Assembly (NCBI GenBank): GCA_947479755.1
Contig: CANKAM010000005.1
Span: 52,187-116,186 of the forward strand
Length of the DNA stretch: 64,000 nucleotides
Reading direction: 5' to 3'
Source of the DNA: Bacteroidota bacterium
GTDB lineage: Bacteria > Bacteroidota > Bacteroidia > SXHM01
Shown: piece after piece, positions 20,659-44,886 of the stretch
How positions within the stretch are numbered: the first letter of the stretch is position 1
Layout of the letters: every line of letters starts with the position of its first letter
Position numbers and translations under genes: made by a program
Notes under the pieces: generated by a model
Databases searched by the model: none
The model's input: only the letters and a program-made list of their open reading frames with translations
What the model was told of the DNA's origin: nothing

Positions 20659-20666
20659 GAGAAGGA

Positions 20667-25062: not shown

Positions 25063-25067
25063 AAATT

Positions 25068-26674: not shown

Positions 26675-26720
26675 TTAATCTCCTTTTTACTTCGGGCGGC
26701 AAATGTAGTAAAATCCTATA

Positions 26721-27881
26721 CTATTCTATTATAGGTGCACGCTCAAAAGGAATGCTTTCGTCCAGCATTTTGCGGCAGGTTATGTAGGTGCGCCATTTAG
26801 TACATTCTAAATTATCAATTACTTTGAGCATTTTAGGGTTAAAATCTCCTATCCAGGTCAGAATTACATGCAAATACTTTTTCTTTGGATAAACCACGGT
26901 TTCAGCATATTTAATCATCAACCCTTCAATTCCTTTTCCCTGATGCTCCTTAGCAACTCCAAACACAATACTATACATGGTTTTACATTCACCGCGCAAC
27001 TTGTGATACATAAACTTTACTTTACCCCACCAGTTAAGATTTCCATTTACATATTTGAATAAAGAATTTAATTCAGGAATACTGATATAAAAACCAACCG
27101 GAGTTTCATGATGATAAGCAAAATAAACAATGTCCGGATCTAATACAGGCTTAAGTTTTTGCATAATATTCTTAGCCTGAGCAGATTCCATTGGCTTGAA
27201 ACCAGCATGTCCTCCCCAGGCATTATTATAGATTATTCGAAAATCTTCAGCAAACTTATTCAATTGTTTAGGGTCAAGACAACGAACTGAGTACCCTTGT
27301 TCATTAAGGCTTTTTGACTTACGTATAAAAATCTCTTGTGCCGGAAGATAAACCGGACGGTAATAGCAATATTGTTCATAATAAGTCTTAAAACCATAAT
27401 CATCAAAGAACTTACGGTAATAAGGTGGATTGTAATTCATCCCGTAGGTGGCCGGACTTTCAAAATTGGTAATCATCAAGCCCCAGAACTGGTCTTTTTC
27501 GCCAAAGTTGATGGGGCCATCCATTGCCTTCATGCCTCGCTCTGCATTCCATTCAGCGCATTTATCAAACAACATTTTTGCAGCAGCGGCATCATCTATA
27601 CATTCAAAAAATCCAAAACCGCCTGTAGGTTGCTTAAATGTATCGGAAAGTCTGCGGTTGATAAAAGTAGCTACGCGACCAATTGTTTTCCCGCTGTCAT
27701 CTTTCAGGATAAAGCGAGTTGCTTCGCCATAGCGGAAAAATTTATTCTTTTTCGGGTCAAATATCTTTTGAATATCCTGACGGATATGAGGTATCCAGTT
27801 CGGGTCGTTCTTATAGATAAGGCGAGGCATTTCAAGGAAATCTTCCTCGTGATGGTTGGTCTTTACTTCAATTATTTGCAT
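26721..27881 (-). CDS. GNAT-like acyl/acetyltransferase-fold protein (about 387 aa)
   Basis: Probable start MQIIEV at 27879-27881. Carries a QGKGIEG acyl-CoA-binding-type motif. Exact family is uncertain. Confidence 0.45.
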   Translation of the reverse strand: MQIIEVKTNHHEEDFLEMPRLIYKNDPNWIPHIRQDIQKIFDPKKNKFFRYGEATRFILKDDSGKTIGRVATFINRRLSDTFKQPTGGFGFFECIDDAAAAKMLFDKCAEWNAERGMKAMDGPINFGEKDQFWGLMITNFESPATYGMNYNPPYYRKFFDDYGFKTYYEQYCYYRPVYLPAQEIFIRKSKSLNEQGYSVRCLDPKQLNKFAEDFRIIYNNAWGGHAGFKPMESAQAKNIMQKLKPVLDPDIVYFAYHHETPVGFYISIPELNSLFKYVNGNLNWWGKVKFMYHKLRGECKTMYSIVFGVAKEHQGKGIEGLMIKYAETVVYPKKKYLHVILTWIGDFNPKMLKVIDNLECTKWRTYITCRKMLDESIPFERAPIIE

Positions 27882-27898
27882 GGCCGAAAAGTAGGAAA

Positions 27899-27930
27899 TT
27901 GTTTGTAATTGAGAATAAATACTACATTTG
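27899..27930 (+). promoter_or_regulatory. Bacteroidota sigma-A-type promoter for rpsP (-33 TTG, -7 TACATTTG)
   Basis: TTG at 27899-27901, a 21-nt spacer, then TACATTTG at 27923-27930, matching the TAnnTTTG -7 consensus. Start codon is 30 nt downstream. Confidence 0.35.
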
Positions 27931-27959
27931 CACCCCTTAATCAAAAAAAACATAAACAA

Positions 27960-28529
27960 ATGCCTGCAAAAATCAGATTACAGAGACATGGGAAAAAAGG
28001 TTTAGGCCTGTTCCACATTGTCGTTGCGGATGGTCGTGCACCACGAGACGGAAAGCTCATCGAGCGCATAGGCACCTACAATCCCAACACCAATCCAGCT
28101 ACCATTGACATCAACTCCGACAAGGCGTTGACCTGGTTGCAAAACGGGGCGCAGCCTACGGATACCTGCCGCGCCATTCTTTCTTACAAAGGAGTTCTTT
28201 ATCGCCAGCACCTGCAAGGTGGGGTTGCTAAAGGAGCCTTCACACAAGAAGAAGCCGATAAACGCTTTGAAAAATGGACGAACGAAAAACAAGGTAAAAT
28301 TGACGCTAAACGCGGAACCCTTGCTTCTTCATATGTTGCAGAAGCAAAGAAACGCATGGAAGCTGAACAAGCCCGCAAAGAAGCTGTATCTCAAAAAGTA
28401 GCTGAAAAAACTTCTGCGCTTGCTGCCGAAGCTGAGGCTGCTGTTGCCGCTGCTCCTGTAGCAGAAGTAACTGAAGAAGCTGCTGCTGCTGAGGCTACTG
28501 CTGAAAACGAAGCTCCTGCTGCCGAGTAA
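27960..28529 (+). CDS. rpsP: 30S ribosomal protein S16 with an Ala/Glu-rich C-terminal extension
   Basis: MPAKIRLQRHGKKGLGLFHIVVADGRAPRDGKLIERIGTYNP is canonical S16. ATG at 27960. Confidence 0.9.
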   Translation: MPAKIRLQRHGKKGLGLFHIVVADGRAPRDGKLIERIGTYNPNTNPATIDINSDKALTWLQNGAQPTDTCRAILSYKGVLYRQHLQGGVAKGAFTQEEADKRFEKWTNEKQGKIDAKRGTLASSYVAEAKKRMEAEQARKEAVSQKVAEKTSALAAEAEAAVAAAPVAEVTEEAAAAEATAENEAPAAE

Positions 28530-30479: not shown

Positions 30480-31244
30480 TTATTTATTGAAAGAGCGCAA
30501 ACGTATTTCGGTCAGCACTTTTTTAGTGTATTGGGGAAAATCGGCAGTCATCATCCAATTGTAGTAACTGGGCTCGGCACTTAAAATGGCTGTAACAACT
30601 TTGCCTTTGTGCTTCCCGAAATTAATTACCTCTTCGTTTTTTTCGTTAAAAATAATGTGTCCTGCAAAGTCAACATTGCGGTTACGGATAGAGAAGTCAT
30701 GCAGGAATTTCACATCGTTTTGCAACTCAGGATAACGCTCTAACTGCGCTTCTAAAACTTCATATGTTGCCAGTGTATCAGCTTCTGCGCTGTGTGCATT
30801 TTCTAAATCTTTCTGGCAATAAAACTTGTAAGCAGCAGAAAGAGTGCGTTGTTCCATTTTATGAAAGATGTTCTGTACATCAACAATTCTGCGGCTTTTC
30901 ACATCAAAGTCAACACCCACTCTTAAAAATTCTTCCACCAGCAGTGGCACATCAAAGTTCAGGCAGTTGTAACCGGCAAGATCGCAATCTGCAAGATAGT
31001 TTTTCAGTTCATGGGCAAAATCCGCAAACAAAGGTTTGTCCTTTACATCAGCATCGTAAATTCCATGCACGACTGAGGCATCGGCAGGAATAGGAATTCC
31101 GGGATTTATTCTTCGCGTAATACTTTCTTTATCTCCACCGGGAAGAACCTTAACAACTGAAATTTCTACTATTTTGTCGGTGGCAACTTTTACACCTGTA
31201 GTTTCAAGGTCAAAAACGGCTAAAGCCTTATTGAGTTTAATCAT
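30480..31244 (-). CDS. DEDDh-type 3'-5' exonuclease domain protein (DnaQ-like)
   Basis: VFDLETTG (Exo I), and NFDVPLL and HSAEADT (Exo III) motifs. The start overlaps the stop of 31241..33169 by 4 nt. Confidence 0.75.
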   Translation of the reverse strand: MIKLNKALAVFDLETTGVKVATDKIVEISVVKVLPGGDKESITRRINPGIPIPADASVVHGIYDADVKDKPLFADFAHELKNYLADCDLAGYNCLNFDVPLLVEEFLRVGVDFDVKSRRIVDVQNIFHKMEQRTLSAAYKFYCQKDLENAHSAEADTLATYEVLEAQLERYPELQNDVKFLHDFSIRNRNVDFAGHIIFNEKNEEVINFGKHKGKVVTAILSAEPSYYNWMMTADFPQYTKKVLTEIRLRSFNK

Positions 31245-33169
31245 GGTTTGGTTGGGGTCGTCTGCACAAGTCCTTTCTGCATCAGGGTAATGTCTTTTAG
31301 TATGGTAGGCAGATAACTGCTCTTGTCGAAGATATTCAGGTCTTCTGATATTTTGTCGTAGCCATCAACTTCCACTTCCAGTTTATAGTTTCCGGGCTTA
31401 AGAATAATCACATACGTTCCTTTTTTGCCTGGCTTGTATGAGCCAATAATATCTCCTGATGCAGGGTCAAGCACATTAATAGATACCTCTACTCCGGGTT
31501 TATTAAGAATAGATTTTGTTTCGGCAGCAACAGGTTTATAATTTGGAATTGGAAGTTTTTTAGAGCGGGTTTCCATCCATTCAAAACCAGATGCATCTTT
31601 CGGAAAAGTTTCGGGTGTATATTTTTTTACTTCTCCATTCATCTTCCCGATGATAGAAATTTCCATCACCTGCCCTTCGGGAATTTCCATTTTCTTATCT
31701 TCTTTAAATGTCCAACCCGGTTTATCTTTCGGATACCATTCATCTGTAAAATAAACATCGCGAGTGCCATCAGTATAAATATGAAAATTGACAACTTTCT
31801 TCTCAGGCTTTTCCATCACCTGAATTTTTCCGGTAACGGCAGATTCCTGCTCTTCCACTTCATTGTAAATAACACGGTAAATATCCAGTTCGCCTATACC
31901 GCCCGGACGAAGAGCGGAAACGTAACCATAACGTGAGTTATCAGAACGAGAAAAAGTAAAATTATCCTGTGTGTTATTAATAGGGTAACCCAGGTTTTGC
32001 GGTCGCGACCAACGTTTCATTTTAGCATCCCATTCGCTGCGGAACACATCGTAACCGCCCATGCTGTTATGTCCCTTAGAAGCAAAATACAACAGCTTGC
32101 CATCTCCTGAAATGTAGGGGAACTCCTCGTCATACTGCGTATTGATGGTTGGTCCAAGGTTTACGGGTTCGCACCATGTTCCGTTTGGTAATTTATGTGC
32201 AACATAAATATCTGTTCCACCAAAACCGGGGTTCTCTAAAGGTGTACGAGAGAAATAAATGGTATTTCCGTCAAGCGTTAAACTTGCAGCTGTTTCGGTT
32301 TCAACCGTATTAATATACTCTCCAAGGGAAACCGATTTCTGAAATGAAATTTTTGAACCGCGTGTTTTGCTTTCGCTCATCCAGATATCGTCATAGCCTT
32401 CAATGTTATCAATACCAATCAGAATGTATCCACCATCTGCCGAAAGACCTACTACCTCTTCCACCCAATCAGTATTAATGGTTGGTCCCAGGTTTTTTGA
32501 TTTTTGAAATTCTCCGTCTTTTTCAAATGAAACAAAAACGTCAGCGCATTTTGCTCCATCAAAATCAAGATTGCCGCCTGTTACTTCTTTTCTTTTGGTT
32601 GAAAAAACTACAAATGATTCATCTGAAGGTACAAATGGATTGTAATCAGATTCAAGAGAGTTTACTTTTTTGCCAAGATTTTCAAATGTTACATTTACAG
32701 GCTTTTTCATCAGTTCCTTTGCGTTGGTGCATATTTCAATCTGACGAATGGCTTCTACAACTTTACCTCCCTGAGAAATGGATGTTTTGTATTTAGTAAA
32801 CGCCTCAATAGCCTGATCAAGACTATCATTAACCAAATAGGCACGACCTAAATCGTAATAAATATCATCATCAGTTTTGCCAAGTGCAATTGCCTTTTTC
32901 AGGTACTGAATGGCATAAGATTTATCAATATTGGTATTCAGATAAGATATTCCTATACGATAGTTGTAAAGCACATTATCCTGCTCTTTGGTAATAAGAG
33001 CAAGGTATTCTCCTAATGCAGCTCTGTAGTTTCCAAATTCAAAATTATCTCTGGCAACTTTTTTTTCCACTTCACCAACTTTGGGAACAACTAATTGGGC
33101 AATAGAAAATTTAGAAAGAAAAAAGAAAGAAAAAAAAAGAAGAGCGAATAATAAACTTCTTTTACTCAT
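31241..33169 (-). CDS. Secreted TPR - PD40 (TolB-like beta-propeller) - carboxypeptidase-regulatory-like beta-sandwich protein. PorE-like but lacking the OmpA_C domain.
   Basis: Signal peptide and N-terminal TPR helices. Repeated PD40 blades (F.S.R....GG.D.(Y/F)...., LGP.INT....E). C-terminal segment GTYVIILKPGNYKLEVEVDGY. No OmpA motif. Confidence 0.7.
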   Translation of the reverse strand: MSKRSLLFALLFFSFFFLSKFSIAQLVVPKVGEVEKKVARDNFEFGNYRAALGEYLALITKEQDNVLYNYRIGISYLNTNIDKSYAIQYLKKAIALGKTDDDIYYDLGRAYLVNDSLDQAIEAFTKYKTSISQGGKVVEAIRQIEICTNAKELMKKPVNVTFENLGKKVNSLESDYNPFVPSDESFVVFSTKRKEVTGGNLDFDGAKCADVFVSFEKDGEFQKSKNLGPTINTDWVEEVVGLSADGGYILIGIDNIEGYDDIWMSESKTRGSKISFQKSVSLGEYINTVETETAASLTLDGNTIYFSRTPLENPGFGGTDIYVAHKLPNGTWCEPVNLGPTINTQYDEEFPYISGDGKLLYFASKGHNSMGGYDVFRSEWDAKMKRWSRPQNLGYPINNTQDNFTFSRSDNSRYGYVSALRPGGIGELDIYRVIYNEVEEQESAVTGKIQVMEKPEKKVVNFHIYTDGTRDVYFTDEWYPKDKPGWTFKEDKKMEIPEGQVMEISIIGKMNGEVKKYTPETFPKDASGFEWMETRSKKLPIPNYKPVAAETKSILNKPGVEVSINVLDPASGDIIGSYKPGKKGTYVIILKPGNYKLEVEVDGYDKISEDLNIFDKSSYLPTILKDITLMQKGLVQTTPTKP

Positions 33170-33215
33170 TATATTATTTGCTTTGGAAATAAATACTGCA
33201 AAACACCTTCAAAAA

Positions 33216-36200
33216 TTAAGGAGTTTTATATTTTTTAACTTCCATTTCAAGCAAAGACTCGGTAATAGCTATGTCTGTATTTTTAAAGCAGAAGATACCA
33301 CCCCAGTTCCATGTCTTTTTGTCGTAAACTGTAACCGTTCCCTTGTCGTTAATGATATATCTTTTCAGCTTAAAATCTTTACCATCAATATTCTCTTCAG
33401 TAAGACCCTCCGGGTAAATCAAAGCGATATCAGAAAGAAATTGTACTCTTCTGTCTTTTTCACTAAGTTGATTATTTTTAGCCCTTTCCTGTGCTTCTTC
33501 AAAACGTTTCTTCCTCTCACTTTCACTTAAACGCTTGGCGTCTTCCTGCGCTATTTTGTATTGCTCAGCACGTAATTTTTCTTCTTCCAGACGTTTTACT
33601 TCAGCAGCAGCTTTTGCTTTTGCTTCAGCTTCATCACGCACACGTTTTTCTTCTGCTAAACGTACAGCCTCTTCACGTGCTTTCTTTTCAGCTTCTGCTC
33701 TTGCTTTAGCATCTGTTTCATCTTTTATGCGCTTTGCTTCGGCTAAGCGAGCAGCTTCTTCACGTGCTTTTTGCTCTGCCTCGGCTTTAGATTTTGCAAC
33801 AGCCGCTTCCTGTACACGTTTTTCTTCTTCTTTTCGCGCAAACTCTGCTTCTGCCTTAGCCTCTGCTTCTGCCTGCAAGCGCTTAGCTTCTGCCACTCGA
33901 GCAGCTTCTTCAGCAGCTTTTTTGTCAGCTTCGGCTTTTGCTTTTGAATCAGCTTCTTCTTTCAAACGCTTAGCTTCTGCCACTCGAGCAGCTTCTTCAG
34001 CAGCTTTTTTGTCAGCTTCTGCTTTAGCTTTGGCATCAGCCTCTTCCTTCAATCGTTTTGCTTCGGCTAAACGAGCTGCTTCCTCATCCTTACGTTTCTG
34101 CTCTGCTTCTGCTTTTGCTTTAGCATCTGCAATTTCGCTTATGCGCTTTTCCTCTGCCAGTCGTGCAAGTTCATCAGCTTTTGCTTTGACTGCAGCTTCC
34201 TCTGCCAATCGTTTTTCTTCTGCTGCTTTTTGTTTTGCTTCTTCAGCAATTTTCTTGATATCTGCTGCTAAACGGGCTTCTTCCCCTGCTTTAGCTTTTG
34301 CCGCTTCCTCTTTCTGACGTTTTTCTTCTGTTAAGCGGACAACTTCATCAGCTTTAGCTTTAGCTGCGGCTTCATCAGCTAATCGTTTTTCTTCTGCTGC
34401 TTTTTGTTTTGCTTCTTCACCGGCTTTCTTGGTCTCTGCTGCAAGACGTGCTTCTTCCTCTGCTTTAGCTTTTGCAGCTTCCTCTTTCTGACGTTTTTCT
34501 TCTGTTAAGCGAGTTGCTTCATCAGCTTTAGCTTTTGCTGCGGCTTCATCTGCCAATCGTTTTTCTTCTGCTGCTTTTTGTTTTGCTTCTTCACCGGCCT
34601 TCTTGGTCTCTGCTGCAAGACGTGCTTCTTCCTCTGCTTTAGCTTTTGTAGTTTCCTCTTTTTGGCGTTTTTCTTCTGCTAAACCGTTAGCTTCTTCTTT
34701 AGCCTTTCTCTCTTCCTCAATCTTAGCTTCAGCTTTTGCTTTTGCATCAGCTTCTTCTTTTATGCGGTTTTTCTCAGCCAATTTTGCTTCTTCTTCTTTT
34801 CTTTTTTCTTCGGCTTCAGCCTTTGCTTTTGCATCAGCTACTTCTTTCAAACGCTTTTCTTCTGCAGCCTTAGCTAATTCTTCTTTTACACGCTTCTCCT
34901 GTTCTGCTTTTGCTTGAGCTTCTTCTTTTTGCTTTCCGGCATCTGCAAATAGTACTTGCGCAGCATCTGATTTTGAGGCAAGAATTTCTTTTGATTTTTG
35001 CTCAATTTCTACCCTGCGCTTCTCCTGCTCAGCAACTTCAGTTGCTTTCTTCTGTTCAAATGATTTTTGCAGTTGTTGAACTTCAACTAAATCTGCAGCC
35101 GATTGAAGTGATCTGAAATCAATACCTATAGCAGGCTGACCACTTTCTTCCGCTTTTTTTACATCTCGTTCATATTGCTCATACATGGCAACCGCTTTTT
35201 CTTCACGATAAGGAGCATTAGCTGGTAACGCATTTTTTAATGCGTTGATTGTTGTCTCTCGATTTCCAGCACCTGTAGTAATTGCGTCCTGAATTTTCTT
35301 TCCCTGTTCAGACTTTGTCTGTTGCAGTTTTTCTTCACGAACTTTTTCAACTCCAACTTCTGCTTTTTTAGATTCAGCCTGACGCTCTTTGCGTTTCTCT
35401 TCCATGGCCATGTAAAGCGCAACTTCGCTATTTTTCATAGCATCTTCTTTCTTTTTGTGCTCAGCATCAACCGCTGTTAATTCTGCTTGTTTACCTGCAT
35501 TGAAAATTGATTTGTAATCAACTGCAGCATAATTTTTACCTTGCTCCTGCATGATTTTTCTATCTGCTTCGTATTTCTCATACATTGCAGTAGCTTTATG
35601 TTCAGCAAAAGGATCATCTTTACCGAATGTTTGTTTAAAGGCTTCTATCATTTTCACTTTATCTCCTGCAGCAGATTTAACAGCTTCTTCAATTTTAGCA
35701 ACAGCTGCAGCTTCTTCTTTCGCGCTTTTCTCATTTACCTTTTGCATGTACTCATCTACTCTTGCTTTCTGCTCCTGAGATTGTTTTTGCTCTGCTTCAT
35801 CCTGAGCTTTAATTTCTGCAAAATTAGCAGCAGCAAACAATGCAGAATAATCTACATTTGAAAAGGTTGATCCTGATAGTTTTTGTTTTTCATAAGCCTC
35901 ATATAGCGCAGTAGCTTTTGCTTCTTTATAAGGGTCTTCTTTCGCGTAAATAGTTTCAAGTTGCTTAATTGTTTCTTCTTTATTGCCTGCACCTGTTTTA
36001 ATAGCCTGCTCAATTTTTTGTTTTTGCTCGGTTTCTGCTTTTTCGCGCAGTACTTGTTGTACACGTTCTGCCTCCTCTAGTTTTCCTTTCATCTCAACAG
36101 CAGCAGCTTCTTTTTGCTTTTCAAGTGCCTGTTTCTCAGTTTTTGCTATTTCTTCTTTTGCAATACGTATTTGTTCCTGAACTTTTTTAACTTCTTCTTC

Positions 36201-37040
36201 TTTTGCTTTTACTATTTGTTGTTCAGTCTTTTTTCCTTCCTGAAATAATATGCCATAATCAACTGTTCCGTTTGTTCCCTTTTGTTTTTCATACGCCTGA
36301 TATATTGCTTCTGCCTTTTTTTGGGCAAGAGTATCGGTATCTAGAAATGTTTTCTTTAAAGCATTTATTGTTGTTTGTTTGTCTCCATTTCCTGATTTTA
36401 TTGCATCTTCAACTTTTTCTTGTCCTAATGTTTTTTCATCTGCTATAAGAGTTTTTGCCTGCATTTCGAGCAACGCCTTGTCTTCTGCAGCCTTTCTCTG
36501 AAACTCTAATTTTTCAAGCCTTTCGCGCTCTAACTTTGCTTCCTCTTCCAGTTCTTCTTTTGAGTAATCTAACTGATAGTCAAATTCTTTTTTCCTCGCG
36601 TAATAGAAAACATTTGCAACAGGGTTAATATAACCGAGACCATCACGGTCAGGTACAAGGTCAACTATAAAACCAAAAGGTTCAGGCTGATTTGTAAGTG
36701 CATATACCTCTGTATCAAAGGTTACTTTTTTTGTGGTATAGCCTCCTACAGCAACTTCAATCATATACTTTCCTTCAAGGTCTAATTTGAAAGAAAATTT
36801 TCCATCACCTTTTGTTAATTGTTTTTCAATTTCAACCCATTTGCCGGTTTTATCAATATCCTGATAAAGAATAACAATAACGTTCTTTAGTTTATCCTGA
36901 AGTTCCTGCGCAGAGCCATTTATAACTAGTTTCCCGGGAATACTGCCGGCAGGCGGCTTCTCCTGCTCAAGCAAAACCTGTGCAGAAACAGAAAGCGATA
37001 ATTGAGAAAGAAGGAATAAAGAAAGTAGTATTTTTTTCAT
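33216..37040 (-). CDS. Giant secreted protein (1274 aa): an N-terminal carboxypeptidase-regulatory-like beta-sandwich, then four roughly 60-aa helical modules, then a Lys/Ala/Glu-rich coiled coil of more than 800 aa (TolA domain II-like) and a small C-terminal domain
   Basis: Signal peptide MKKILLSLFLLSQLSLSVSAQ. Beta-sandwich motif GKYMIEVAVGGYTTKKVTF. Long runs of EEKRLKEEADAKAKAEA. Contains internal in-frame DNA tandem repeats. Confidence 0.7.
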   Translation of the reverse strand: MKKILLSLFLLSQLSLSVSAQVLLEQEKPPAGSIPGKLVINGSAQELQDKLKNVIVILYQDIDKTGKWVEIEKQLTKGDGKFSFKLDLEGKYMIEVAVGGYTTKKVTFDTEVYALTNQPEPFGFIVDLVPDRDGLGYINPVANVFYYARKKEFDYQLDYSKEELEEEAKLERERLEKLEFQRKAAEDKALLEMQAKTLIADEKTLGQEKVEDAIKSGNGDKQTTINALKKTFLDTDTLAQKKAEAIYQAYEKQKGTNGTVDYGILFQEGKKTEQQIVKAKEEEVKKVQEQIRIAKEEIAKTEKQALEKQKEAAAVEMKGKLEEAERVQQVLREKAETEQKQKIEQAIKTGAGNKEETIKQLETIYAKEDPYKEAKATALYEAYEKQKLSGSTFSNVDYSALFAAANFAEIKAQDEAEQKQSQEQKARVDEYMQKVNEKSAKEEAAAVAKIEEAVKSAAGDKVKMIEAFKQTFGKDDPFAEHKATAMYEKYEADRKIMQEQGKNYAAVDYKSIFNAGKQAELTAVDAEHKKKEDAMKNSEVALYMAMEEKRKERQAESKKAEVGVEKVREEKLQQTKSEQGKKIQDAITTGAGNRETTINALKNALPANAPYREEKAVAMYEQYERDVKKAEESGQPAIGIDFRSLQSAADLVEVQQLQKSFEQKKATEVAEQEKRRVEIEQKSKEILASKSDAAQVLFADAGKQKEEAQAKAEQEKRVKEELAKAAEEKRLKEVADAKAKAEAEEKRKEEEAKLAEKNRIKEEADAKAKAEAKIEEERKAKEEANGLAEEKRQKEETTKAKAEEEARLAAETKKAGEEAKQKAAEEKRLADEAAAKAKADEATRLTEEKRQKEEAAKAKAEEEARLAAETKKAGEEAKQKAAEEKRLADEAAAKAKADEVVRLTEEKRQKEEAAKAKAGEEARLAADIKKIAEEAKQKAAEEKRLAEEAAVKAKADELARLAEEKRISEIADAKAKAEAEQKRKDEEAARLAEAKRLKEEADAKAKAEADKKAAEEAARVAEAKRLKEEADSKAKAEADKKAAEEAARVAEAKRLQAEAEAKAEAEFARKEEEKRVQEAAVAKSKAEAEQKAREEAARLAEAKRIKDETDAKARAEAEKKAREEAVRLAEEKRVRDEAEAKAKAAAEVKRLEEEKLRAEQYKIAQEDAKRLSESERKKRFEEAQERAKNNQLSEKDRRVQFLSDIALIYPEGLTEENIDGKDFKLKRYIINDKGTVTVYDKKTWNWGGIFCFKNTDIAITESLLEMEVKKYKTP
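33883..34056. repeat. Two near-identical in-frame 87-bp tandem repeats (29-aa unit AEAKRLKEEADAKAKAEADKKAAEEAARV) inside CDS 33216..37040
   Basis: TAGCTTCTGCCACTCGAGCAGCTTCTTCAGCAGCTTTTTTGTCAGCTTC occurs at 33883 and again at 33970. Confidence 0.7.
34310..34830. repeat. Three in-frame tandem copies of a 174-bp (58-aa) unit inside CDS 33216..37040; the first two are near-identical
   Basis: CTTTCTGACGTTTTTCTTCTGTTAAGCG... restarts at 34310 and 34484, with a diverged third copy near 34656. The protein unit is AEEKRLADEAAAKAKADEATRLTEEKRQKEEAAKAKAEEEARLAAETKKAGEEAKQKA. Confidence 0.8.
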
Positions 37041-37107
37041 CTCAACTCTTAAATTTTTTAAACAACTAATTTACGAACTTTCAGATTACTATAGTTGTCC
37101 CCGAAAA

Positions 37108-39345
37108 TTATTTCCCTGCTGTGGTAATAATTTTTTTACCGTCAACACTTAAAATAGTAAGTTCAATTCTTCTGTTCATCTGGCGACCTTCCAGATCATC
37201 ATCACCATTAGGTTTTAGATTATCAGCAATAGGCTTAGCTTCCCCATAACCTTTGGTAACAACTCTTTTGGCTTTTATACCTCGTTCATCCAACCATTTT
37301 TGAACGGATTTTGCCCTTCTTCTTGATAAATCAATATTGTATTCGTCAGTTCCTCTGGAGTCAGTATGACCTGCAACCTCAACAATCATTTCAGGATTTG
37401 AGGTCATAAAGTAATATAGTTTTGAAAGTTCAATAACTGACTCATCACGTATATTATCTTTGTCAAAATCGAAATAAATTCTTTCCAAAATAATTTTATC
37501 GCCCGGTTTAAATTTTTTGGTATTTGAAATATCTACGTCCATTAGTGATGGATCATAGCCAAGTTTTTTAATCACTTCAAGTTTTGCAAGTTCCTTTTCA
37601 AGTTCTACAATTTCATCTGCAAGTGTGAGATTCTGTTGTTCAACTTTAGGTATCTCCATAGTATATGTTTGATCCATTCTATATTTTGCATTTGGATCCG
37701 GACGCATGGTGTAATCTTGTATAATCTCTGAAATGAAAGAACTTTGACCTAACACTTCTACAACACCCATAGTATCAAAGTAAAGTGGGTTTTGAATATA
37801 AACACAATACTCGCCCGGCTGAAGTATTTGAACATAATTACTATTCCGGGAATTTGGTTTGTAGTAACCTATCAGTTCATTGGTTTCCATATTTGTAACT
37901 GACATTATAAATTCAGGCAGTTTCATGTCGGGATTTTTCTTCAACGAGTCTGCTATGTTTGTTATTGATCCTCTGACTAAACTCCTCTCCGGATCTACTT
38001 CGTTAAATGTTACTTTATAAATATCCTTTTCTCCAAATCCTTCCGGTCTGAATTGAGCAACATATCCATACCTTCCTGTAGTTGACATTGAAATATTATA
38101 ATCTTCATCTACCGTATTTATTGGGTAACCAAGATTTCTAGGTGTTGACCAGGTTTGGGTAAGTTCGTCCCAAACGGAAGTAAAAATATCAAAACCTCCC
38201 ATACTTACATGGCCTTCTGAAGCAAAATAGAGTGTTTTCCCATCTGCTGCGAGGTGCGGGAACGTTTCGTTGTATTTGGTATTAATAATCGGACCAAGGC
38301 TTACAGGATTTCCCCAGTTACCATTTGGCATTCGATACGACATAAAAATATCAGTGCCTCCATTAGTCGTCTTATCTTCACGTGAGAAGAATAGTTTACT
38401 AGCATCTGTAGATAGTCCTGCAGATGTTTCAATACCCTCTGAATTAATATTTGTTCCGAAAGTTTTATATTCTTCATAATACCTGCCTTTTCTTTGTGAG
38501 ACATAAACATCATCGTATCCGTCAAAGTTGTCAATAAAAACAAGCATTTCTTCACCATCAGCAGAAACTCCAACTACTTCCTCATACCACTCAGTATTTA
38601 CTGCTGAACCTATATTTCTTGCTTCTCCAAATTTCCCTCTTCGTTCATTTGCCCTGTAAATATCTGATGTTTTATATCCGTCATAGTCAATTTGTATACC
38701 TAAGCAATCTGGTCTTTTTGAAGTAAAAACAATGAATTCTTCATTTTCCGGAATAAACGGGTTATACTCAGGATAAGGTGTGTTGATGCGGCTACCAAGA
38801 TTTTCAAAAGTAACATCTAACGGATATTTAACAAGTTCCTTAGCATTAAAACACATTTCAATAACGCGGTCTCCGGCAATAATATTATCATTTGCGGAGC
38901 GCAGAATGTCCTTATATTTATTCAAAGTAATAATAGCCTCATCAAAACGGCCTACAAACTGATATGCACGTCCTAATTGATAAAGTGCTTCTTTATCAAA
39001 TTTTGGTTGCTGTGTAACAAATTCCAAATAGCTGATGGCTTTAGACTTATCAATATATGTTTCAAGATAGCAACAACCCACGTAAAAATTATAATCTACA
39101 TTCTGAGGATCATTTGCAAGAAGTAATAAGAATTCATCCAAAGCTGCTCTGAAATTTCCATTCCAATAATGTTCTAATCCCTTCTGTTTAGTTGGCTTAT
39201 ATATTTTATCTTCTTTTTCTTTTTTAATTTTATCCTCAACTTCCTGAGTAGTAGTAATGTCTCTTGACTGCGAAAACACAGCAAGAGGCAATGCTAATAG
39301 CGTAAAAACAAAAAATAAGAATGAAAAAGTATAGGTCTTTAACAT
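37108..39345 (-). CDS. PorE-like envelope protein: signal peptide - TPR - PD40 beta-propeller - carboxypeptidase-regulatory-like domain - short coiled coil - OmpA_C peptidoglycan-binding domain
   Basis: Four-domain order matches P. gingivalis PorE (PG1058). The OmpA_C motif is ...VEVAGHTDSRGTDEYNIDLSRRRAKSV..NRRIEL. Confidence 0.75.
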   Translation of the reverse strand: MLKTYTFSFLFFVFTLLALPLAVFSQSRDITTTQEVEDKIKKEKEDKIYKPTKQKGLEHYWNGNFRAALDEFLLLLANDPQNVDYNFYVGCCYLETYIDKSKAISYLEFVTQQPKFDKEALYQLGRAYQFVGRFDEAIITLNKYKDILRSANDNIIAGDRVIEMCFNAKELVKYPLDVTFENLGSRINTPYPEYNPFIPENEEFIVFTSKRPDCLGIQIDYDGYKTSDIYRANERRGKFGEARNIGSAVNTEWYEEVVGVSADGEEMLVFIDNFDGYDDVYVSQRKGRYYEEYKTFGTNINSEGIETSAGLSTDASKLFFSREDKTTNGGTDIFMSYRMPNGNWGNPVSLGPIINTKYNETFPHLAADGKTLYFASEGHVSMGGFDIFTSVWDELTQTWSTPRNLGYPINTVDEDYNISMSTTGRYGYVAQFRPEGFGEKDIYKVTFNEVDPERSLVRGSITNIADSLKKNPDMKLPEFIMSVTNMETNELIGYYKPNSRNSNYVQILQPGEYCVYIQNPLYFDTMGVVEVLGQSSFISEIIQDYTMRPDPNAKYRMDQTYTMEIPKVEQQNLTLADEIVELEKELAKLEVIKKLGYDPSLMDVDISNTKKFKPGDKIILERIYFDFDKDNIRDESVIELSKLYYFMTSNPEMIVEVAGHTDSRGTDEYNIDLSRRRAKSVQKWLDERGIKAKRVVTKGYGEAKPIADNLKPNGDDDLEGRQMNRRIELTILSVDGKKIITTAGK

Positions 39346-39456
39346 CTAGTTATTTCACATATTTATCAGCCTGTGAAGCCTTTTTAATTTCGGGTTAATA
39401 ATACCAAATATTTTAAAACACGCAAAAAATTTAAATCTTCGTTATTAACAATTTTA

Positions 39457-42400
39457 TTAAGATTTAGGTTTTAAATCCTTTGGAACATCAAAATTTTCAA
39501 TCTTAACATTCTTTGCATCAAGGTTCAAAATCCTGATTTCAATTCTTCTGTTTAACTGTCTTCCTTCAGGATTATCTGATCCATCAGGATTCTCATTTAT
39601 AGCAATTGGTTGACCTTCTCCCATTCCAACAGCTTTAAAGCGATTAGCATCAATACCTTTTCTTGTAAGATACCTTACCACTGCATTTGCTCTGTCTTTT
39701 GAAAGCTCTACATTATAATCATCATTCCCATGAGAATCGGTATGACCACTAACTTCAACTTTTATGTCCTTATTATCTGACATATAGTTATATAATTTCT
39801 GTAGTTCTTCCTCCGACTCTTTCCTGATTATTGATAAATTATAATCAAATAAAATATTTTTAAGTACAACAGACCCACCCTTTTTAAATGATTCGAAATC
39901 AGTTTTCATAACTGCTGCCTGATATTTTTGCTGCTTCTGAATTTCTTCAAATTTAGCTAACAACTCTTCGTACTTTTTATTTTGGTCCGTAACCTGCTGT
40001 GTCAACTGATTAATTTTATTACCCGATTCAGCTATTTGCTTTTTAAGTTGTTCGTTTTCTAAAATCAGTGCTTGATTCATTTTCTTCAGTTCCTCAATAC
40101 TCTTTGAATTGTCAAGTGCATCTGCTTGATTTTTTGCTTCCTCCTCAGCTTTAGCTTTGGCGACTACCTCTTCTGCTTTCCGTTTTTCCTCAGCAATCTT
40201 CTGTTGCGCTTTAACAAATTCTTCTTGTTTCTCTTTTTTAGCGGTTTCTTCTAATTTAAGTTTCTCGTCAGCAAGTTTCTCGTCAGCAATCCTTTGCTCT
40301 TCCGCTTTCCTTTTCACTTCTTCTTCTTTTTGAGCAGCAAGACGAATTTCTTCCATTTTAGCTTTATTAGCTGCCTCAAGAGACGCTTTATCTTCAGCAT
40401 CTTTTCTCTCAGTTTCCTCCTTAGCCTGTAACTTCCTTTTTTCTTCAACTATCTGTTGGTCTTCTTGTTTCTTCTTCTCTTCATAAGACTCCTTAGCGAA
40501 ACCTGATGCCAGTTCTTCTTTCTCTTTAGTTATTTTTTGAGTTTGTAATTTCTTAAGTTCCTCTAAGCGCTTGACAATTTCATTTTTTCTAGCAACTAAT
40601 GAATCTTCAAATGCTTTTTTCGTTTGGTCGGCAATTAGCTTTTGCTGCTCTTCCTGTTTTTTCTTTTCTGCTGCAAACTTTGCTGCTTCATCAGCCTTAC
40701 GTTTCTCTTCTGCTAAACGTGCGGCTTCCTCGGCAAGTTTCTTTTCCTGTGCTGCTTTATTAGCTGCAAGTTCTTCCGCTTTTTTCTTTTCCTCAGCTGC
40801 TATACGAAGTGATTCCTCAGCTTTGGCTTTTGCTGCAACTTCTTCTGCAAGCTTTTTCTCTTCAACTGATTTTGCTGCGGCAACTTCTTCTGCCTTTTTC
40901 TTTTCTTCTACTGCCAAACGGGCTGTTTCTTCTGCTTTAGCCTTTGCTGCTAATTCCTCAGACAGTTTTTTCTCATCAGCAGATTTAGCTTTAGCAAGTC
41001 CTTCTTCCTTTTTCTTTTCTTCTGCTGCTAAACGGGCTATTTCCTCAACTTTGGTTTTTGCTGCGGCTTCCTCAGCCAATTTCTTCTCTTCTGCTGATTT
41101 AGTTGATGCAAGTTCTTCTGCTTTTTTCTTCTCAGCTGCAAGGCGTTTTTCTTCTTCCGCTTTCTGCTTCTCTTCTGCCAGCCTACCTCTCAGAACAGCT
41201 TCTTCAGAAAGTCGTTTTTCTTCAGCCGCTTTTGCTGCTTGTTCTGTTTTGCGTTTCTCTTCTGCTAATAAAGTTTCCTGCTCTTTAGCAGATTTCTCCA
41301 TCGCAACAAGTTGCTCTTCCAATGCCTTCAGCTCTGATAGTTTTTCGTTTTCAGGTTCTTTATTATCTGCTATCTGATTCACTTCTTCAACTTTCTTTTC
41401 TTCTTGTTGCGCAACTTGTTTTCCGCAAATTACAGGATCAAGCATTATTGCTTTTGTTATCTCTGCATAGCTTGAATTTTCAGGAACTACTATTTTATCG
41501 ATTTTAGACTGATAACCATCACACTCATAGGTAACATTATACGTTGCTCCAGGTTGAAGAATAAAAATATAGCTTCCGGTAGATTTATTAGGTTTATAAA
41601 TTCCTGTAACAGCATTGGTTCTGGCATCAGCTACAATAATATTTGCAAGAATTTCCGGACTATTTTCAAGAATAACAACACCTTTCATAACGGTAAGGCT
41701 TTCTTTCTTTTTTTCGGTAAGCTCAATCAGATAAATATCTTTTTCACCCATCCCACCTTCCATGCGTGAAGAGTAATAAGCATAGTGTCCATCCGGAGTA
41801 GTAACAAAAAACACATCGTCTTCAGGAGAATTGATCGGATAACCAATATTAACAGGTGTTGACCAAACTCCATCGATATTTTCAGAAGTGAATATATCAA
41901 AACCGCCCATACTATTGTGACCCTGAGAACTGAAGATAAGTGTTTTCCCATCAGCTGCAAAAAATGGTGCTTCTTCATCAAAGGCGGTATTTATAGTTGC
42001 TCCGAGATTTTCCGCTTTACCCCAAGTGCCATCAGGAAGAAGTGAGATTTTGTAAATATCTCTTCCGCCTAAACTTCCGCTTCTGTTACTGACTATGAAT
42101 AAATTTTGTCCGTCTGCCGAAACTGTTGCATGGGTTTCCCAAGAACCGGTGTTTATTTCACCGCCTAACTTTTCAGGTTTTGACCATTCTGCACCATTTA
42201 ATTTACTCATGTAGATATTACCATCTCCATTGTCATCTTTGTAAATAAACAATTGCTGTCCGTCAGGAGAAAGGCCTATTGTGGCTTCATGTCCTTCCGT
42301 ATTAATATTAACCCCTATACTTCGTGGTGTTGTCCATTTACCTTTTTCTTTTTTTGCAATGTATATGTCCTCATAGTACTTTCCGTCAAGAAAAAGTTTC

Positions 42401-43050
42401 CCGCCAGTCCCTTCTCTGCGTGAAGTAAAGATGAGTGTATTGCCATCTCCTGAAATTACAGGGCTATATTCTTCATATTTTGAATTGATAACCGAACCCA
42501 ATGATTGAACCTTAATATTTACAGGTTCTTCTATAAGTAATTTTGCATTTTCAGAATATTCAATCTGATGTTTTACTTCAGAATACGTATTTACATCTTC
42601 TAAATCAACAAATGACCGATAATTATAATAATTTGAAATTGCATCATCAAAACGGTAAGAAAAATGGTAGGCTTTTGCAAGATTATAATATGTTATACCT
42701 GGTGCTGTTTTTTCCTTGTAGTCGCTTTCTTTATACATAGGCGATGGGGGTGAAAGCATTATTGCCTGCTCAAGATAATAGATTGCTTTTTTTCTGTCAG
42801 GGCTAGCACCAAGATAGGATGTACCCAACATGTATGCAATATTTGCGTTTGAAGAATCGTAAGCATATAATTCCTTTGAAATAGGCAGGGCTTTGTAATA
42901 GTCACCGTCAAACAAATAACCATCAACCAAAGCGAATTTCTTTTTAAAATCCGCTTCGTTGGTAACTTGTGCGCTTACTGTGCTGAAAAGAAATAAACCT
43001 AAAACTACTAAAAGTAAACCTGCTCGCATAAACTGTCCGTAAAAATACAA
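39457..43050 (-). CDS. PorE-like protein with a roughly 450-aa Lys/Ala/Glu coiled-coil insertion: TPR - PD40 - carboxypeptidase-regulatory-like domain - long coiled coil - OmpA_C
   Basis: PD40 blades and beta-sandwich motif SYIFILQPGATYNVTYECDGY. About 40-aa repeats AEEKKKAEE.AAAKS.EEKKLAEEAAAKAKAEE. C-terminal OmpA_C motif VEVSGHTDSHGNDDYNVELSKDRANAV..NRRIEIRIL. The true start may be the internal Met MRAGLLL. Confidence 0.75.
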   Translation of the reverse strand: MYFYGQFMRAGLLLVVLGLFLFSTVSAQVTNEADFKKKFALVDGYLFDGDYYKALPISKELYAYDSSNANIAYMLGTSYLGASPDRKKAIYYLEQAIMLSPPSPMYKESDYKEKTAPGITYYNLAKAYHFSYRFDDAISNYYNYRSFVDLEDVNTYSEVKHQIEYSENAKLLIEEPVNIKVQSLGSVINSKYEEYSPVISGDGNTLIFTSRREGTGGKLFLDGKYYEDIYIAKKEKGKWTTPRSIGVNINTEGHEATIGLSPDGQQLFIYKDDNGDGNIYMSKLNGAEWSKPEKLGGEINTGSWETHATVSADGQNLFIVSNRSGSLGGRDIYKISLLPDGTWGKAENLGATINTAFDEEAPFFAADGKTLIFSSQGHNSMGGFDIFTSENIDGVWSTPVNIGYPINSPEDDVFFVTTPDGHYAYYSSRMEGGMGEKDIYLIELTEKKKESLTVMKGVVILENSPEILANIIVADARTNAVTGIYKPNKSTGSYIFILQPGATYNVTYECDGYQSKIDKIVVPENSSYAEITKAIMLDPVICGKQVAQQEEKKVEEVNQIADNKEPENEKLSELKALEEQLVAMEKSAKEQETLLAEEKRKTEQAAKAAEEKRLSEEAVLRGRLAEEKQKAEEEKRLAAEKKKAEELASTKSAEEKKLAEEAAAKTKVEEIARLAAEEKKKEEGLAKAKSADEKKLSEELAAKAKAEETARLAVEEKKKAEEVAAAKSVEEKKLAEEVAAKAKAEESLRIAAEEKKKAEELAANKAAQEKKLAEEAARLAEEKRKADEAAKFAAEKKKQEEQQKLIADQTKKAFEDSLVARKNEIVKRLEELKKLQTQKITKEKEELASGFAKESYEEKKKQEDQQIVEEKRKLQAKEETERKDAEDKASLEAANKAKMEEIRLAAQKEEEVKRKAEEQRIADEKLADEKLKLEETAKKEKQEEFVKAQQKIAEEKRKAEEVVAKAKAEEEAKNQADALDNSKSIEELKKMNQALILENEQLKKQIAESGNKINQLTQQVTDQNKKYEELLAKFEEIQKQQKYQAAVMKTDFESFKKGGSVVLKNILFDYNLSIIRKESEEELQKLYNYMSDNKDIKVEVSGHTDSHGNDDYNVELSKDRANAVVRYLTRKGIDANRFKAVGMGEGQPIAINENPDGSDNPEGRQLNRRIEIRILNLDAKNVKIENFDVPKDLKPKS

Positions 43051-43179
43051 TAATCTATCATTACATCGCAGAAAATAATCACGATATAATATAAAATAAA
43101 TTCAATAAAATTATAACATTCGAGCAATAATAAGCAAAATAACAAGATTAAAGCGTCATTATTTGCAAAAAGAAAGAAA

Positions 43180-44799
43180 TTACTTCTTTTTAACCTTCAT
43201 AGGTTCAAGATTTACCGCCTTATTTATTTCAAAATAAGAGGTTCCGACAGGAACTGTCAAATTCTCGGAATGGAATAAGTAACCATTTGCTTCGTAAGCA
43301 ATATTATAAGTAATTCCTGGCTTTAGAATTAGGGTAAAACTACCATTATCAGCGCGGTTTCTGGAAGTTCCGTAGAGTTCACCTGATTTGTTATCTGTTA
43401 CGTTAATAGTAACTTTGGGAATAGTACCATTTTCATCTTTTTCAATCTTTCCTTTGTAAAGAGTAAGCGGCTCCTGAATTTCAAGTTCAAGGTTAATCAG
43501 GTAAATATCTTTTTCACCAAAACCACTGTCCTTTGATGAGGAATAATAAGCTCTTTTTCCATCGGGTGAAGCAACAAAGAACACCTCATCATCTGCTGTA
43601 TTGGTTGGATAACCAATGTTTCTGGGCTGTGTCCATTTCCCGTCATCCTGAAAGACAGAGAAGAAAATATCAAAACCACCAATACTGGTATGTCCTTTTG
43701 AACTAAAGAAAAGTGTTTTGCCGTCAGGATGCATGAAAGGTGCATCTTCATCGTACTCTGTATTTACGACATCGCCAAGGCTTTGTGCTAATCCCCAGTC
43801 ACCATTAGGTAATTTTTTACAGGAATAAATATCCAATCCACCTTTTCCGCCATTGCGATTACTGGTAAAAAACAAGAGTTGTCCGTCCGGTGAAACAGAA
43901 GCATGCGTTTCCCATGCTTTACTGTTAATGTCAGACCCAAGCAATACAGCTTCGCTCCATACATCATTCTGCAATTTACTAACATAGATGTTTCCATCGC
44001 CCCAGTCATCGCGATAAATATAAAGTTGCTGCCCGTCTGCCGACAAACTGATACAAGCATCATGTCCGTCTGTATTAATTGCAGGGCCAATGTTACTTGG
44101 CGTAGACCATTCACCGTTTTCATTTTTTACTGAAACATAAATATCTTCAAAGTATTTATCATCATCGGCTTTAAGGTTTCCGGTTGTTCCCTGCCTGCGG
44201 GAAGTAAAAATCAGCATGGTTTCACTGGCATCAATAACAGCTGAATAATCATCAAAAGCTGAGTTAATTTTCTTTCCTAAGTTTTGGATTGAAAAACTTA
44301 CTGGTGTCTTAAAAATTTCTCGTGCATTATCGCACATCTTTATCTGGCGTTCAACATCTTTTGTAAGTTCAACTTCGTATTCAGGAATGTATTGTTTGAA
44401 TTGTTTGTATTCTTTGATAGCGCTATCAACCTTAAAGTCAATGTGATACGTTTTCGCCAATTTGTAAATTGCATCGGGAGGAGCTTGTGTTTCCTTATAA
44501 GTTCCTTCGGCAAATTCTTTTGAAATATTTTTAGATGCTGCCTTAAAATAAGGAATTCCAAGCGATTTACGATTAGTAGTACTGAAATAGCACATACCAA
44601 TTTTGTATTTCACATGAGCGTTTTCCGGATACAGTTTTTCCAGCTCAAGAAAATTTTTCAGGGCAAGATCAATCTTACCTGCTGCAAGGTGCTGTTCAGC
44701 AACAGGAAATATTTTTTTCAGATAATCTTCGCCTTGCGCAAACGAATGCAGCGTGCCGAATACAGAACATAAAATGCAAATGAGGAAAACTTTCTTCAT
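43180..44799 (-). CDS. Secreted TPR - PD40 beta-propeller - carboxypeptidase-regulatory-like protein (PorE-like without OmpA_C)
   Basis: Probable start MKKVFLICILCSVFGTLHSFAQ (ATG at 44797-44799). PD40 blades present. C-terminal SFTLILKPGITYNIAYEANGY with no OmpA motif. Confidence 0.7.
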   Translation of the reverse strand: MKKVFLICILCSVFGTLHSFAQGEDYLKKIFPVAEQHLAAGKIDLALKNFLELEKLYPENAHVKYKIGMCYFSTTNRKSLGIPYFKAASKNISKEFAEGTYKETQAPPDAIYKLAKTYHIDFKVDSAIKEYKQFKQYIPEYEVELTKDVERQIKMCDNAREIFKTPVSFSIQNLGKKINSAFDDYSAVIDASETMLIFTSRRQGTTGNLKADDDKYFEDIYVSVKNENGEWSTPSNIGPAINTDGHDACISLSADGQQLYIYRDDWGDGNIYVSKLQNDVWSEAVLLGSDINSKAWETHASVSPDGQLLFFTSNRNGGKGGLDIYSCKKLPNGDWGLAQSLGDVVNTEYDEDAPFMHPDGKTLFFSSKGHTSIGGFDIFFSVFQDDGKWTQPRNIGYPTNTADDEVFFVASPDGKRAYYSSSKDSGFGEKDIYLINLELEIQEPLTLYKGKIEKDENGTIPKVTINVTDNKSGELYGTSRNRADNGSFTLILKPGITYNIAYEANGYLFHSENLTVPVGTSYFEINKAVNLEPMKVKKK

Positions 44800-44886
44800 A
44801 GAAAAGTTTGTGTTTAGGTTTTTAATACCAATCAGACTTATCATTAGACAAGAACCAATAAATAAGCACTCAATACGCTTATTTTC

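Follow-up and report, generated by a model that had tools for sequence, protein, structure and literature searches.

How the outer membrane is coupled to the cell wall is poorly understood in the Bacteroidota, which are not known to have Braun's lipoprotein. A 64,000-nucleotide stretch of assembly GCA_947479755.1 (Bacteroidota bacterium, an uncultured freshwater member of the Bacteroidia; contig CANKAM010000005.1, positions 52,187 to 116,186), hereafter the window, contains an array of five consecutive minus-strand open reading frames (ORFs), g1 to g5, separated by 46, 67, 111 and 129 bp. What do these genes encode, and could their products bridge the envelope? The original prediction, made from the DNA alone, described five paralogous PorE-like genes built from shared modules, two of them with giant coiled coils, that together recapitulate the Tol-Pal system. 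The layout itself, five consecutive genes with gaps of 46–129 bp, is confirmed (Table 1). Our analysis places four of the predicted proteins in the superfamily of PorE and CHU_0125, a very large family in which no other members have been studied, and the fifth, g2, in a separate family of giant helical proteins; we give about even odds to a role of the array in tethering the outer membrane to peptidoglycan.

The proteins g1, g3, g4 and g5 are mutually 33–46% identical (BLAST, E 1e-62 to 1e-140). The closest pairs are g1/g3 (46%) and g4/g5 (45%), with 33–36% identity across pairs, and these are two duplicated pairs, each made up of one protein with and one without an OmpA_C domain. Family searches took in all large (at least 150 amino acids), non-nested ORFs of the window, about 45 of the 51 listed. 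With NCBIfam, all four proteins align to the CHU_0125 and PorE models across the region comprising TPR, propeller and carboxypeptidase-regulatory-like domain (CRD); the alignments begin at about model position 20 and thus include the TPR part. Scores for g1, g3, g4 and g5 were 194.1, 287.1, 274.9 and 199.2 bits with the CHU_0125 model (NF053607) and 148.9, 215, 270.4 and 191.1 bits with the PorE model (NF052230), and none reached the respective curated cut-offs of 620 and 600 bits. The four are best regarded as divergent paralogs within the PorE/CHU_0125 superfamily. The predicted set of five comes down to four, as g2 has no match to the PorE model and is without TPR, PD40, OmpA_C or BLAST similarity to the others.

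Individual domains were recovered to differing extents. PD40 (PF07676, gathering threshold 20.9 bits) scored 45.4 bits in g1, 43.7 in g3, 109.3 in g4 and 112.7 in g5, with no Pfam match in g2. OmpA_C (PF00691, gathering threshold 27.2 bits) scored 72.2 bits in g3 and 75.4 in g4, with no match above threshold in g1, g2 or g5. All TPR matches in Pfam were below threshold, as were the CarboxypepD_reg matches in the window (PF13620/PF13715), which reached 15–20 bits against a threshold of about 32 (g5, 20.1 bits; g1, E 0.002–0.009). In g1 the CRD-like sandwich is apparently interrupted by an insert of about 85 residues. The vocabulary of modules proposed at the outset (signal peptide, TPR, PD40 propeller, CRD-like sandwich, optional charged helix, optional OmpA_C) was right, and no enzyme domain was found in g1–g5, as had been foreseen. 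The four-domain order of PorE is found in g3 and, interrupted by an insert of 485 residues, in g4, but not in g1 and g5, which lack OmpA_C, nor in g2.

In both g3 and g4 the OmpA_C domain looks intact and keeps the canonical Asp/Asn/Arg motif that binds diaminopimelate (DAP). Aligned to solved OmpA_C domains, that of g4 shows GHTDSHGNDDYNVELSKDRA and NRRIEI; the translation of g3 reads GHTDSRGTDEYNIDLSRRRA and NRRIEL, and both retain the motifs TD...YN...LS..RA and NRR(I/V)E. The best solved-structure matches of g3 include 6TOP, labelled 'OmpA family protein', which we take to be PorE's C-terminal domain. The peptidoglycan-binding residues of PorE are D576, N584 and R591, and the Asp/Asn/Arg residues contact DAP in the crystal structure (PMC7192894); these residues are needed for PorE function (PMC12773672). 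A separate observation concerns the top PDB sequence match of both OmpA_C domains (searched with g3, 37108–39345, and with the g4 segment 39457–39960), which is the C-terminal ~130 residues of chain 7f4v_aB. This 872-residue chain is deposited as 'Photosystem I P700 apoprotein A2', and the matched part is either an unexpected OmpA_C-like extension or a fusion in that entry.

The g2 protein returned no match from either Pfam or NCBIfam, and BLAST with a low-complexity filter found no similarity to the other four. Thus g2 is not a PorE paralog and belongs to a separate, rarer family of the Bacteroidota. An AlphaFold model of residues 1–700, built on an 11-sequence alignment, has a mean predicted local distance difference test score (pLDDT) of 75. 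Foldseek matched the N-terminal sandwich to several transthyretin/prealbumin-type sandwiches, as well as to other folds, with E ~3e-4 to 3e-3. The Pfam family CarbopepD_reg_2 aligned to it below threshold (E 0.006), and in relatives with a g2-type C-terminal domain CarboxypepD_reg reached 35.6 bits, above its cut-off of 32.3. The transthyretin-type matches and the above-threshold score in relatives make 'CRD-like' a reasonable label for this domain of g2. Beyond it, the model contains four repeats, in each of which a helix of 60–90 residues leads into a small knot of three helices. In the sequence, the knots coincide with a ~60-residue module, covered by no Pfam family, whose conserved alignment columns read AIxxGxGxKxxTIxxL...DPYxExKAxAMYExYE...(V/I)D(Y/F)xxLF. 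The helical region shows a 3.7-residue amphipathic periodicity of 13.7, compared with a shuffle level of 7.4. A word-indexed search with the N-terminal 676 residues found 7 homologs; it scored just the 8000 candidates sharing most words, and its index was swamped by low-complexity candidates. Much more was learned by searching exhaustively with the C-terminal domain.

That C-terminal domain, of 78 residues, is predicted with confidence (pLDDT 92) as an alpha-beta5-alpha fold, and is new and unnamed; its profile found nothing under E 0.28 among PDB sequences. The exhaustive search located it in 152 cluster representatives of 60–2282 residues, at the extreme C-terminus in nearly all listed carriers. 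Most of the carriers that were checked open with a CRD-like domain, and in several the middle part is helical or of TPR type. Outside the clade, genes with this domain do not, with few exceptions, lie beside PorE-like genes. No conserved functional neighbour or secretion partner accompanies them outside the lineage, where the synteny is of housekeeping genes only; going by labels read from example sequences, the neighbours resemble aldolase/lyase-like, surE, lpxB, ABC transporter and comEC-like genes. In a Salibacteraceae metagenome-assembled genome (MAG; OZ253948.1, locus L077:9011-11598), two adjacent genes each end in the g2-type domain, which points to tandem duplication of this family elsewhere.

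The giant Lys/Ala/Glu coiled coils foreseen for g2 and g4 proved to be long tracts of much that composition, but without heptad periodicity, a lack that the original prediction had itself named as counting against it. The g2 tract (A29 E24 K19 R8) has 4–12% large hydrophobic residues and ~0–4% Gly+Pro, and the g4 tract (E23 K20 A18 L9) has ~8–24% large hydrophobic residues per 50-residue segment and ~0–2% Gly+Pro. Fourier power of the hydrophobic positions at 3.5 residues was 0.0–1.8 in every 84-residue segment of g2 beyond residue 697 and at most 4.7 per 84-residue segment of the g4 tract; for whole tracts it is ~1, against a 95% shuffle level of ~7. In the same test tropomyosin scored 22–35 and domain II of Escherichia coli TolA gave no heptad signal. 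A weak heptad signal is confined to the ~80 residues that precede the OmpA_C domain of g4 (residues 961–1044). A hendecad or 29-residue straight-bundle register was considered for the 29-residue repeat and rejected, there being no power at 3.6–3.67 residues. Opposite charges are commoner at i+4 and i+3 than at i+2 and i+5, with 0.32 (g2) and 0.24 (g4) opposite-charge i/i+4 pairs per residue. The tracts are best described as charged helices like TolA domain II or single alpha-helices, not as heptad coiled coils.

The DNA of the tracts contains tandem repeats, of 87 bp and 174 bp (29/58 residues) in g2 and of 114 bp (38 residues; 40766–41130) in g4, with copies up to 90% identical at the DNA level. 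Smith-Waterman comparison of the two tracts gave 424, against 243 ± 13 in shuffles (z = 14; z = 12 under block shuffles), and both contain the repeat motif AEEK(R/K)LAEEAAAKAKAEExARLAxEEKKKxEE. A likeness so far above that of composition supports real sharing of modules between neighbouring genes, and this part of the original prediction stands, as g2 in addition opens with a CRD-like sandwich. The tract is kept in all g2 orthologs (344–752 residues) and in all measurable g4 orthologs (247–514 residues, several of these lengths being taken from ORFs ended by the locus edge). The length of g2 is 1130–1529 residues among orthologs and 1180–1274 residues among sequences that are ~99% identical. 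The g2 repeat tract is where many public contigs from this population break off (L002–L006), and a 99%-identical homolog has 1180 residues as opposed to 1274 here; the copy number in the window may for these reasons be an assembly estimate or a real polymorphism.

Each of the five translations opens with a hydrophobic signal peptide with an Ala/Ser-Gln end, the five signal-peptidase-I-type ends being SIAQ, VSAQ, VFSQ, VSAQ and SFAQ. Such an end is the signal-peptidase-I 'Q-rule' of Bacteroidetes. No lipobox Cys at +1 of the cleavage site was seen on reading the five sequences directly, and all five proteins are predicted to be Sec-exported and non-lipidated. The NCBIfam and Pfam searches detected no type IX secretion system (T9SS) sorting domain in g1–g5, while three other proteins of the window carry a type-A sorting domain (TIGR04183 / PF18962; 1684–4308 on the plus strand, 18312–19190 and 60478–62160 on the minus strand). 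The organism accordingly secretes by T9SS, and retention in the periplasm is the default expectation for the array proteins.

Conservation of the array could be followed through uncultured relatives. Upstream of the array lie genes for 2-oxoacid dehydrogenase E2, a GT2 glycosyltransferase and RecR, and downstream a DnaQ-like exonuclease, whose start is overlapped by the g1 stop by 4 bp, FAA hydrolase, TrmN, RimM and S16. A near relative, the MAG GCA_022072225.1 ('Bacteroidia bacterium'), shares all five genes and both flanks, and its g2 ortholog is 86% identical. One genome per species was scanned with the profile of the g2 C-terminal domain, giving 257 confirmed loci, the best 80 of which all belong to uncultured Bacteroidota MAGs. 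The order g4-g3-g2-g1 is kept in loci L009–L027, from ~19 species-level MAGs of uncultured Bacteroidia/Flavobacteriales, with identities that fall to 39–50% for the N-terminal domain of g2, 49–58% for g1 and 55–70% for g3. At 14 of the 14 loci that have an upstream flank g3 is directly upstream of g2, and at 16 of the 17 with a downstream flank g1 is directly downstream. As to the five-gene array that had been proposed, it is the g4-g3-g2-g1 part that is kept so widely, and g5 was seen in three relatives. These three, among them the distant loci L089 and L091, also keep the RecR-GT2-E2 flank, so that g5 and the flank persist in relatives at ~47–51% amino-acid identity; L089 and L019 are from the same MAG.

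Distant orthologs of g3 are longer, at ~1053–1092 residues (L015, L017, L019–L025 and L027; also L008:2-1138), and carry a classical WD40 propeller (GH...WD repeats) of ~320 residues between the CRD region and OmpA_C. They thus combine two different propellers in one wall-anchored protein. An Ala/Glu/Lys helix, considered as another identity for this ~320-residue insert, was ruled out when inspection revealed the WD40 propeller.

The array is an operon-like cluster on the chromosome, conserved throughout a lineage of uncultured aquatic Bacteroidia/Flavobacteriales, and with a probability of roughly one half it supplies periplasmic links, with long helical spacers, between outer membrane and peptidoglycan. 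The TPR/propeller ends would dock onto outer-membrane proteins, in the way that the N-terminal domains of PorE dock onto the PorP barrel, and the OmpA_C ends of g3 and g4 would attach, without a covalent bond, to the stem peptide of peptidoglycan. The long charged helices would act as semi-rigid spacers of variable length. Fully extended they would measure ~70 nm, which exceeds the width of the periplasm, so that an oblique, lateral or folded-back arrangement is more plausible than a perpendicular strut; what forms would be a slack tether or mesh. The proteins that have no wall anchor (g1, g5 and g2) would join the assembly by protein-protein contacts.

Several observations weigh against such periplasmic links. 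None of the five proteins is a lipoprotein or a beta-barrel, which leaves attachment to the outer membrane purely inferred, and no PorP-like gene was recognised among the window ORFs. Helicity of the tracts is predicted from their composition and from the last ~60 modelled residues of the adjoining helix, and no structural homolog of the g2 C-terminal domain was found. The genes on both flanks are housekeeping genes and uninformative on function. Scans for sigma-70 promoters, intrinsic terminators and the Bacteroidetes -33/-7 motif returned chance-level counts and no intergenic terminator, so that an operon is neither supported nor contradicted. No cultured relative is present among the best 80 of the 257 loci.

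The homology to PorE invites another explanation, in which the array is a T9SS or gliding accessory, one member being a functional PorE and the rest tethering PorP/SprF-like barrels that hold surface proteins with type-B C-terminal sorting domains (CTDs). The four paralogs are homologous to PorE across TPR, propeller and CRD, the three type-A CTD proteins indicate that the organism has a T9SS, genomes of T9SS organisms are known to hold several PorE homologs (PMC7192894) and PorE binds PorP (PMC9143113). Nevertheless, the paralogs score 149–270 bits against a PorE cut-off of 600 and match the CHU_0125 model equally well or better, none is a lipoprotein as PorE is, the conserved flanks in relatives hold housekeeping genes, and no T9SS core, porP-like, sprF, gldKLMN, sprA or type-B CTD gene was recognised among window ORFs of at least 150 residues; we regard this role as doubtful. 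It seems very unlikely that the array is a fused kit of the Tol-Pal type (CpoB-like TPR, TolB-like propeller, TolA-II-like helix, Pal-like OmpA_C) that replaces or duplicates Tol-Pal, as the claim of recapitulation would have it. The domain classes are alike, the charged tract resembles TolA domain II in composition and in its lack of a heptad, and CHU_0125 was first annotated as a Pal homolog and has Pal-like mutant phenotypes (PMC5891637). However, matches to the TolB model (TIGR02800; g4 35.5 and g5 28.6 bits, cut-off 343) and the Pal model (TIGR02802; g3 80 and g4 66 bits, cut-off 125) lie far under their cut-offs and amount to no more than a generic domain-class likeness, and the TolA model is not matched. 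The family searches of the 64-kb window found no Tol gene (TolA, TolQ and TolR included), ExbB/D or MotA. Energy coupling, which defines Tol-Pal, has no route with neither TolQ/TolR nor an inner-membrane anchor present, and the comparison is only an analogy of domain classes that lacks the defining motor.

Two further readings turn on the helical tracts, and a third on where they are located. The tracts could be fast-evolving linkers of low complexity that have neither a set length nor a structural function; the array would then consist of ordinary OmpA-family paralogs and a hypothetical protein. Tandem repeats up to 90% identical, assemblies that break within them, the variable length of g2, even at ~99% identity, and the lack of a heptad signal are all in keeping with filler of this kind, but the tract is kept in every g2 and every measurable g4 ortholog across ~50% sequence divergence, the motif common to g2 and g4 goes beyond composition, opposite charges are enriched at i+4/i+3 over i+2/i+5, and Gly and Pro are near-absent. 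These features fit a helix under selection and not a random coil, and we consider filler unlikely. A more ambitious reading, and a decidedly unlikely one, has g2, g4 and the OmpA-less partners forming a periplasmic lattice or 'ruler' of ~70-nm charged single alpha-helices with a tunable number of repeats; OmpA_C would pin it to peptidoglycan, and the propeller/TPR parts and the new C-terminal domain would pin it to outer-membrane or other partners. If true, envelope spacing or mechanics would be set in a way not seen in model Gram-negatives. Finally, helices longer than the periplasm is wide, and a domain that sits at the extreme C-terminus of nearly all listed carriers in the manner of sorting domains, could mean that g2, and possibly g4, is exported past the outer membrane to form surface fibrils or an S-layer-like coat, with the C-terminal domain as sorting or anchoring signal. 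T9SS CTDs are of Ig-like sandwich fold, whereas the g2 domain is predicted to be alpha-beta5-alpha; it matches no type-A sorting domain or other NCBIfam model, though the type-A model of the same library does match other window proteins. As the domain that closes g4 is a peptidoglycan-binding one, meaningful in no place but the periplasm, and no secretion partner stands beside the C-terminal-domain genes outside the lineage, surface fibrils are extremely improbable.

The original prediction held a paralogous array of this kind to be undescribed, which was overstated. PorE-type proteins number in the thousands: more than 5300 matches at E<=1e-10 were obtained among 8000 candidates scored, most of them 655–680 residues long with OmpA_C and some ~540 residues long without it, like g5. 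Genomes hold multiple PorE homologs, up to fourteen in Tannerella forsythia (PMC7192894). Within the reach of our searches, the undescribed part is that the g2 giant, with its two new modules, is conserved in association with the paralogs. Here one locus shows the PorE/CHU_0125 family diversifying into forms that have or lack a wall anchor, have or lack spacers and, in sister lineages, carry a further WD40 propeller, and recruiting an unrelated giant helical protein. The 78-residue C-terminal domain and the ~60-residue helical knot are two unnamed, well-conserved modules for family databases. The orthologs form a natural series of spacer lengths that is usable to ask whether the length of a periplasmic tether matters, with the practical limit that every carrier found is an uncultured MAG.

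Table 1. Genes of the array and their mapped features (window positions; aa, amino acids; residues numbered on the listed ORFs)
Feature	Position	Strand	Size or residues	Content
g1	31241-33169	-	642 aa	signal peptide, TPR, PD40 propeller, CRD-like sandwich; no OmpA_C
g2	33216-37040	-	1274 aa	signal peptide, beta-sandwich, long helices bearing four helical 'knot' modules, Ala/Glu/Lys repeats (~470 aa), C-terminal domain
g3	37108-39345	-	745 aa	signal peptide, TPR, PD40 propeller, CRD-like region, short linker, OmpA_C
g4	39457-43050	-	1197 aa (listed ORF)	signal peptide, TPR, PD40 propeller, CRD-like sandwich, ~485 aa Ala/Glu/Lys helix, short heptad stretch, OmpA_C
g5	43180-44844	-	554 aa (listed ORF)	signal peptide, TPR, PD40 propeller, CRD-like sandwich; no OmpA_C
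g2 C-terminal alpha-beta5-alpha domain	33219-33452	-	78 aa	motifs FLSxLAxxYPxGxTEE and NWGGxFxFKN
g2 Ala/Glu/Lys repeat tract	33531-34940	-	residues ~701-1170 (~470 aa)	within helical region 160-1190
g2 helical region	34941-36563	-	residues 160-700	four copies of the ~60-aa module
g2 N-terminal transthyretin/CRD-like beta-sandwich	36570-36932	-	residues 37-157	AlphaFold pLDDT 85-90
g3 OmpA_C domain	37141-37488	-	residues ~620-735	
g4 OmpA_C domain	39511-39864	-	residues ~1063-1180	PF00691, 75.4 bits
g4 charged helical spacer	39916-41373	-	residues ~560-1045 (~485 aa)	between CRD and OmpA_C

Two of the listed starts can be refined. The array region is identical to part of a 132-kb ENA metagenome contig, and in public annotations of identical metagenomic contigs g4 begins seven codons further in; its start is likely at 43029, giving 1190 residues. 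For g5 the public calls use either the same ATG (554 residues) or one 15 codons later (539 residues), and the true start is likely the ATG at 44799, giving 539 residues beginning MKKVFL. Rfam and tRNA scans of the window gave no matches.

Elsewhere in the window, a sugar-nucleotide and polysaccharide biosynthesis block (19906–27959, minus strand) comprises CpsB/CapC-like genes, three epimerase/dehydratases, a UDP-glucose/GDP-mannose dehydrogenase, a GFO/IDH/MocA oxidoreductase, a hexapeptide transferase and a 412-residue ORF with no family match; its array-proximal part is syntenic in a related MAG (L007). The S16 ORF (27909–28529, plus strand; 206 residues) matches the long PRK14521-type S16 (186 residues) from about residue 18, so translation probably starts downstream of the TTG that is listed. 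Three or four beta-ketoacyl synthase-like genes stand in a row at 9081–14803 (minus strand), accompanied by genes for a polysaccharide deacetylase and a LolA-like protein; the group resembles the flexirubin or aryl-polyene-type lipid clusters of Bacteroidota. A Dpp7-like dipeptidyl-peptidase (6512–8701, minus strand) scores 607 bits against an equivalog cut-off of 1200, and is adjoined by a 722-residue ORF (4309–6477) with no family match.

Among known systems are periplasmic proteins that combine a coiled coil with OmpA_C, such as the PRK09039-type 'peptidoglycan-binding protein', with whose helical part the weak heptad stretch of g4, the ~80 residues leading up to its OmpA_C domain, can be aligned. 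Proteins of this type and the stator anchors of MotB/MotY type are short and anchored in the inner membrane, whereas the N-terminal half of g4 is of PorE type and its spacer is several times as long. The tracts share with TolA domain II and with ER/K single alpha-helices a richness in Ala/Glu/Lys(Arg), scarce Gly and Pro, the lack of a heptad and abundant i/i+4 charges, and with TolA, though not with ER/K helices, a periplasmic setting. They differ from TolA in having no match to its model, no inner-membrane anchor and no TolQ/TolR, and are 2–3 times longer than its domain II.

The nearest studied relatives remain CHU_0125 and PorE. CHU_0125 of Cytophaga hutchinsonii, a Pal-like envelope-integrity factor whose deletion results in a leaky envelope and hypervesiculation (PMC5891637), is the top-scoring model for all four paralogs (194–287 bits), shares their TPR and PD40 domains and the OmpA_C of g3 and g4, and acts in envelope integrity, not in secretion. 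The scores are, however, far under 620 bits, and CHU_0125 is a single protein of 656 residues with no known helical-spacer or OmpA-less paralogs and no known partner of the g2 type. PorE (PG1058/PGN_1296), of the T9SS of Porphyromonas gingivalis, is an outer-membrane lipoprotein that links the PorP barrel to peptidoglycan (PMC9143113); its propeller is required for PorP binding and Asp576/Asn584 for function (PMC9143113, PMC7192894, PMC12773672). The array proteins are set apart from PorE by being non-lipidated, by scores of 149–270 bits against 600, by the absence from g1 and g5 of the OmpA_C domain that is essential to PorE function, by the ~485-residue charged helix of g4 and by the lack of T9SS genes nearby. 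In architecture, g3 has the same order of TPR, five-bladed-type PD40 propeller, CRD and OmpA_C, g4 the same order plus its insert, and both keep the Asp/Asn/Arg motif; a further feature probably shared with PorE is that of a bridge between an outer-membrane protein and peptidoglycan.

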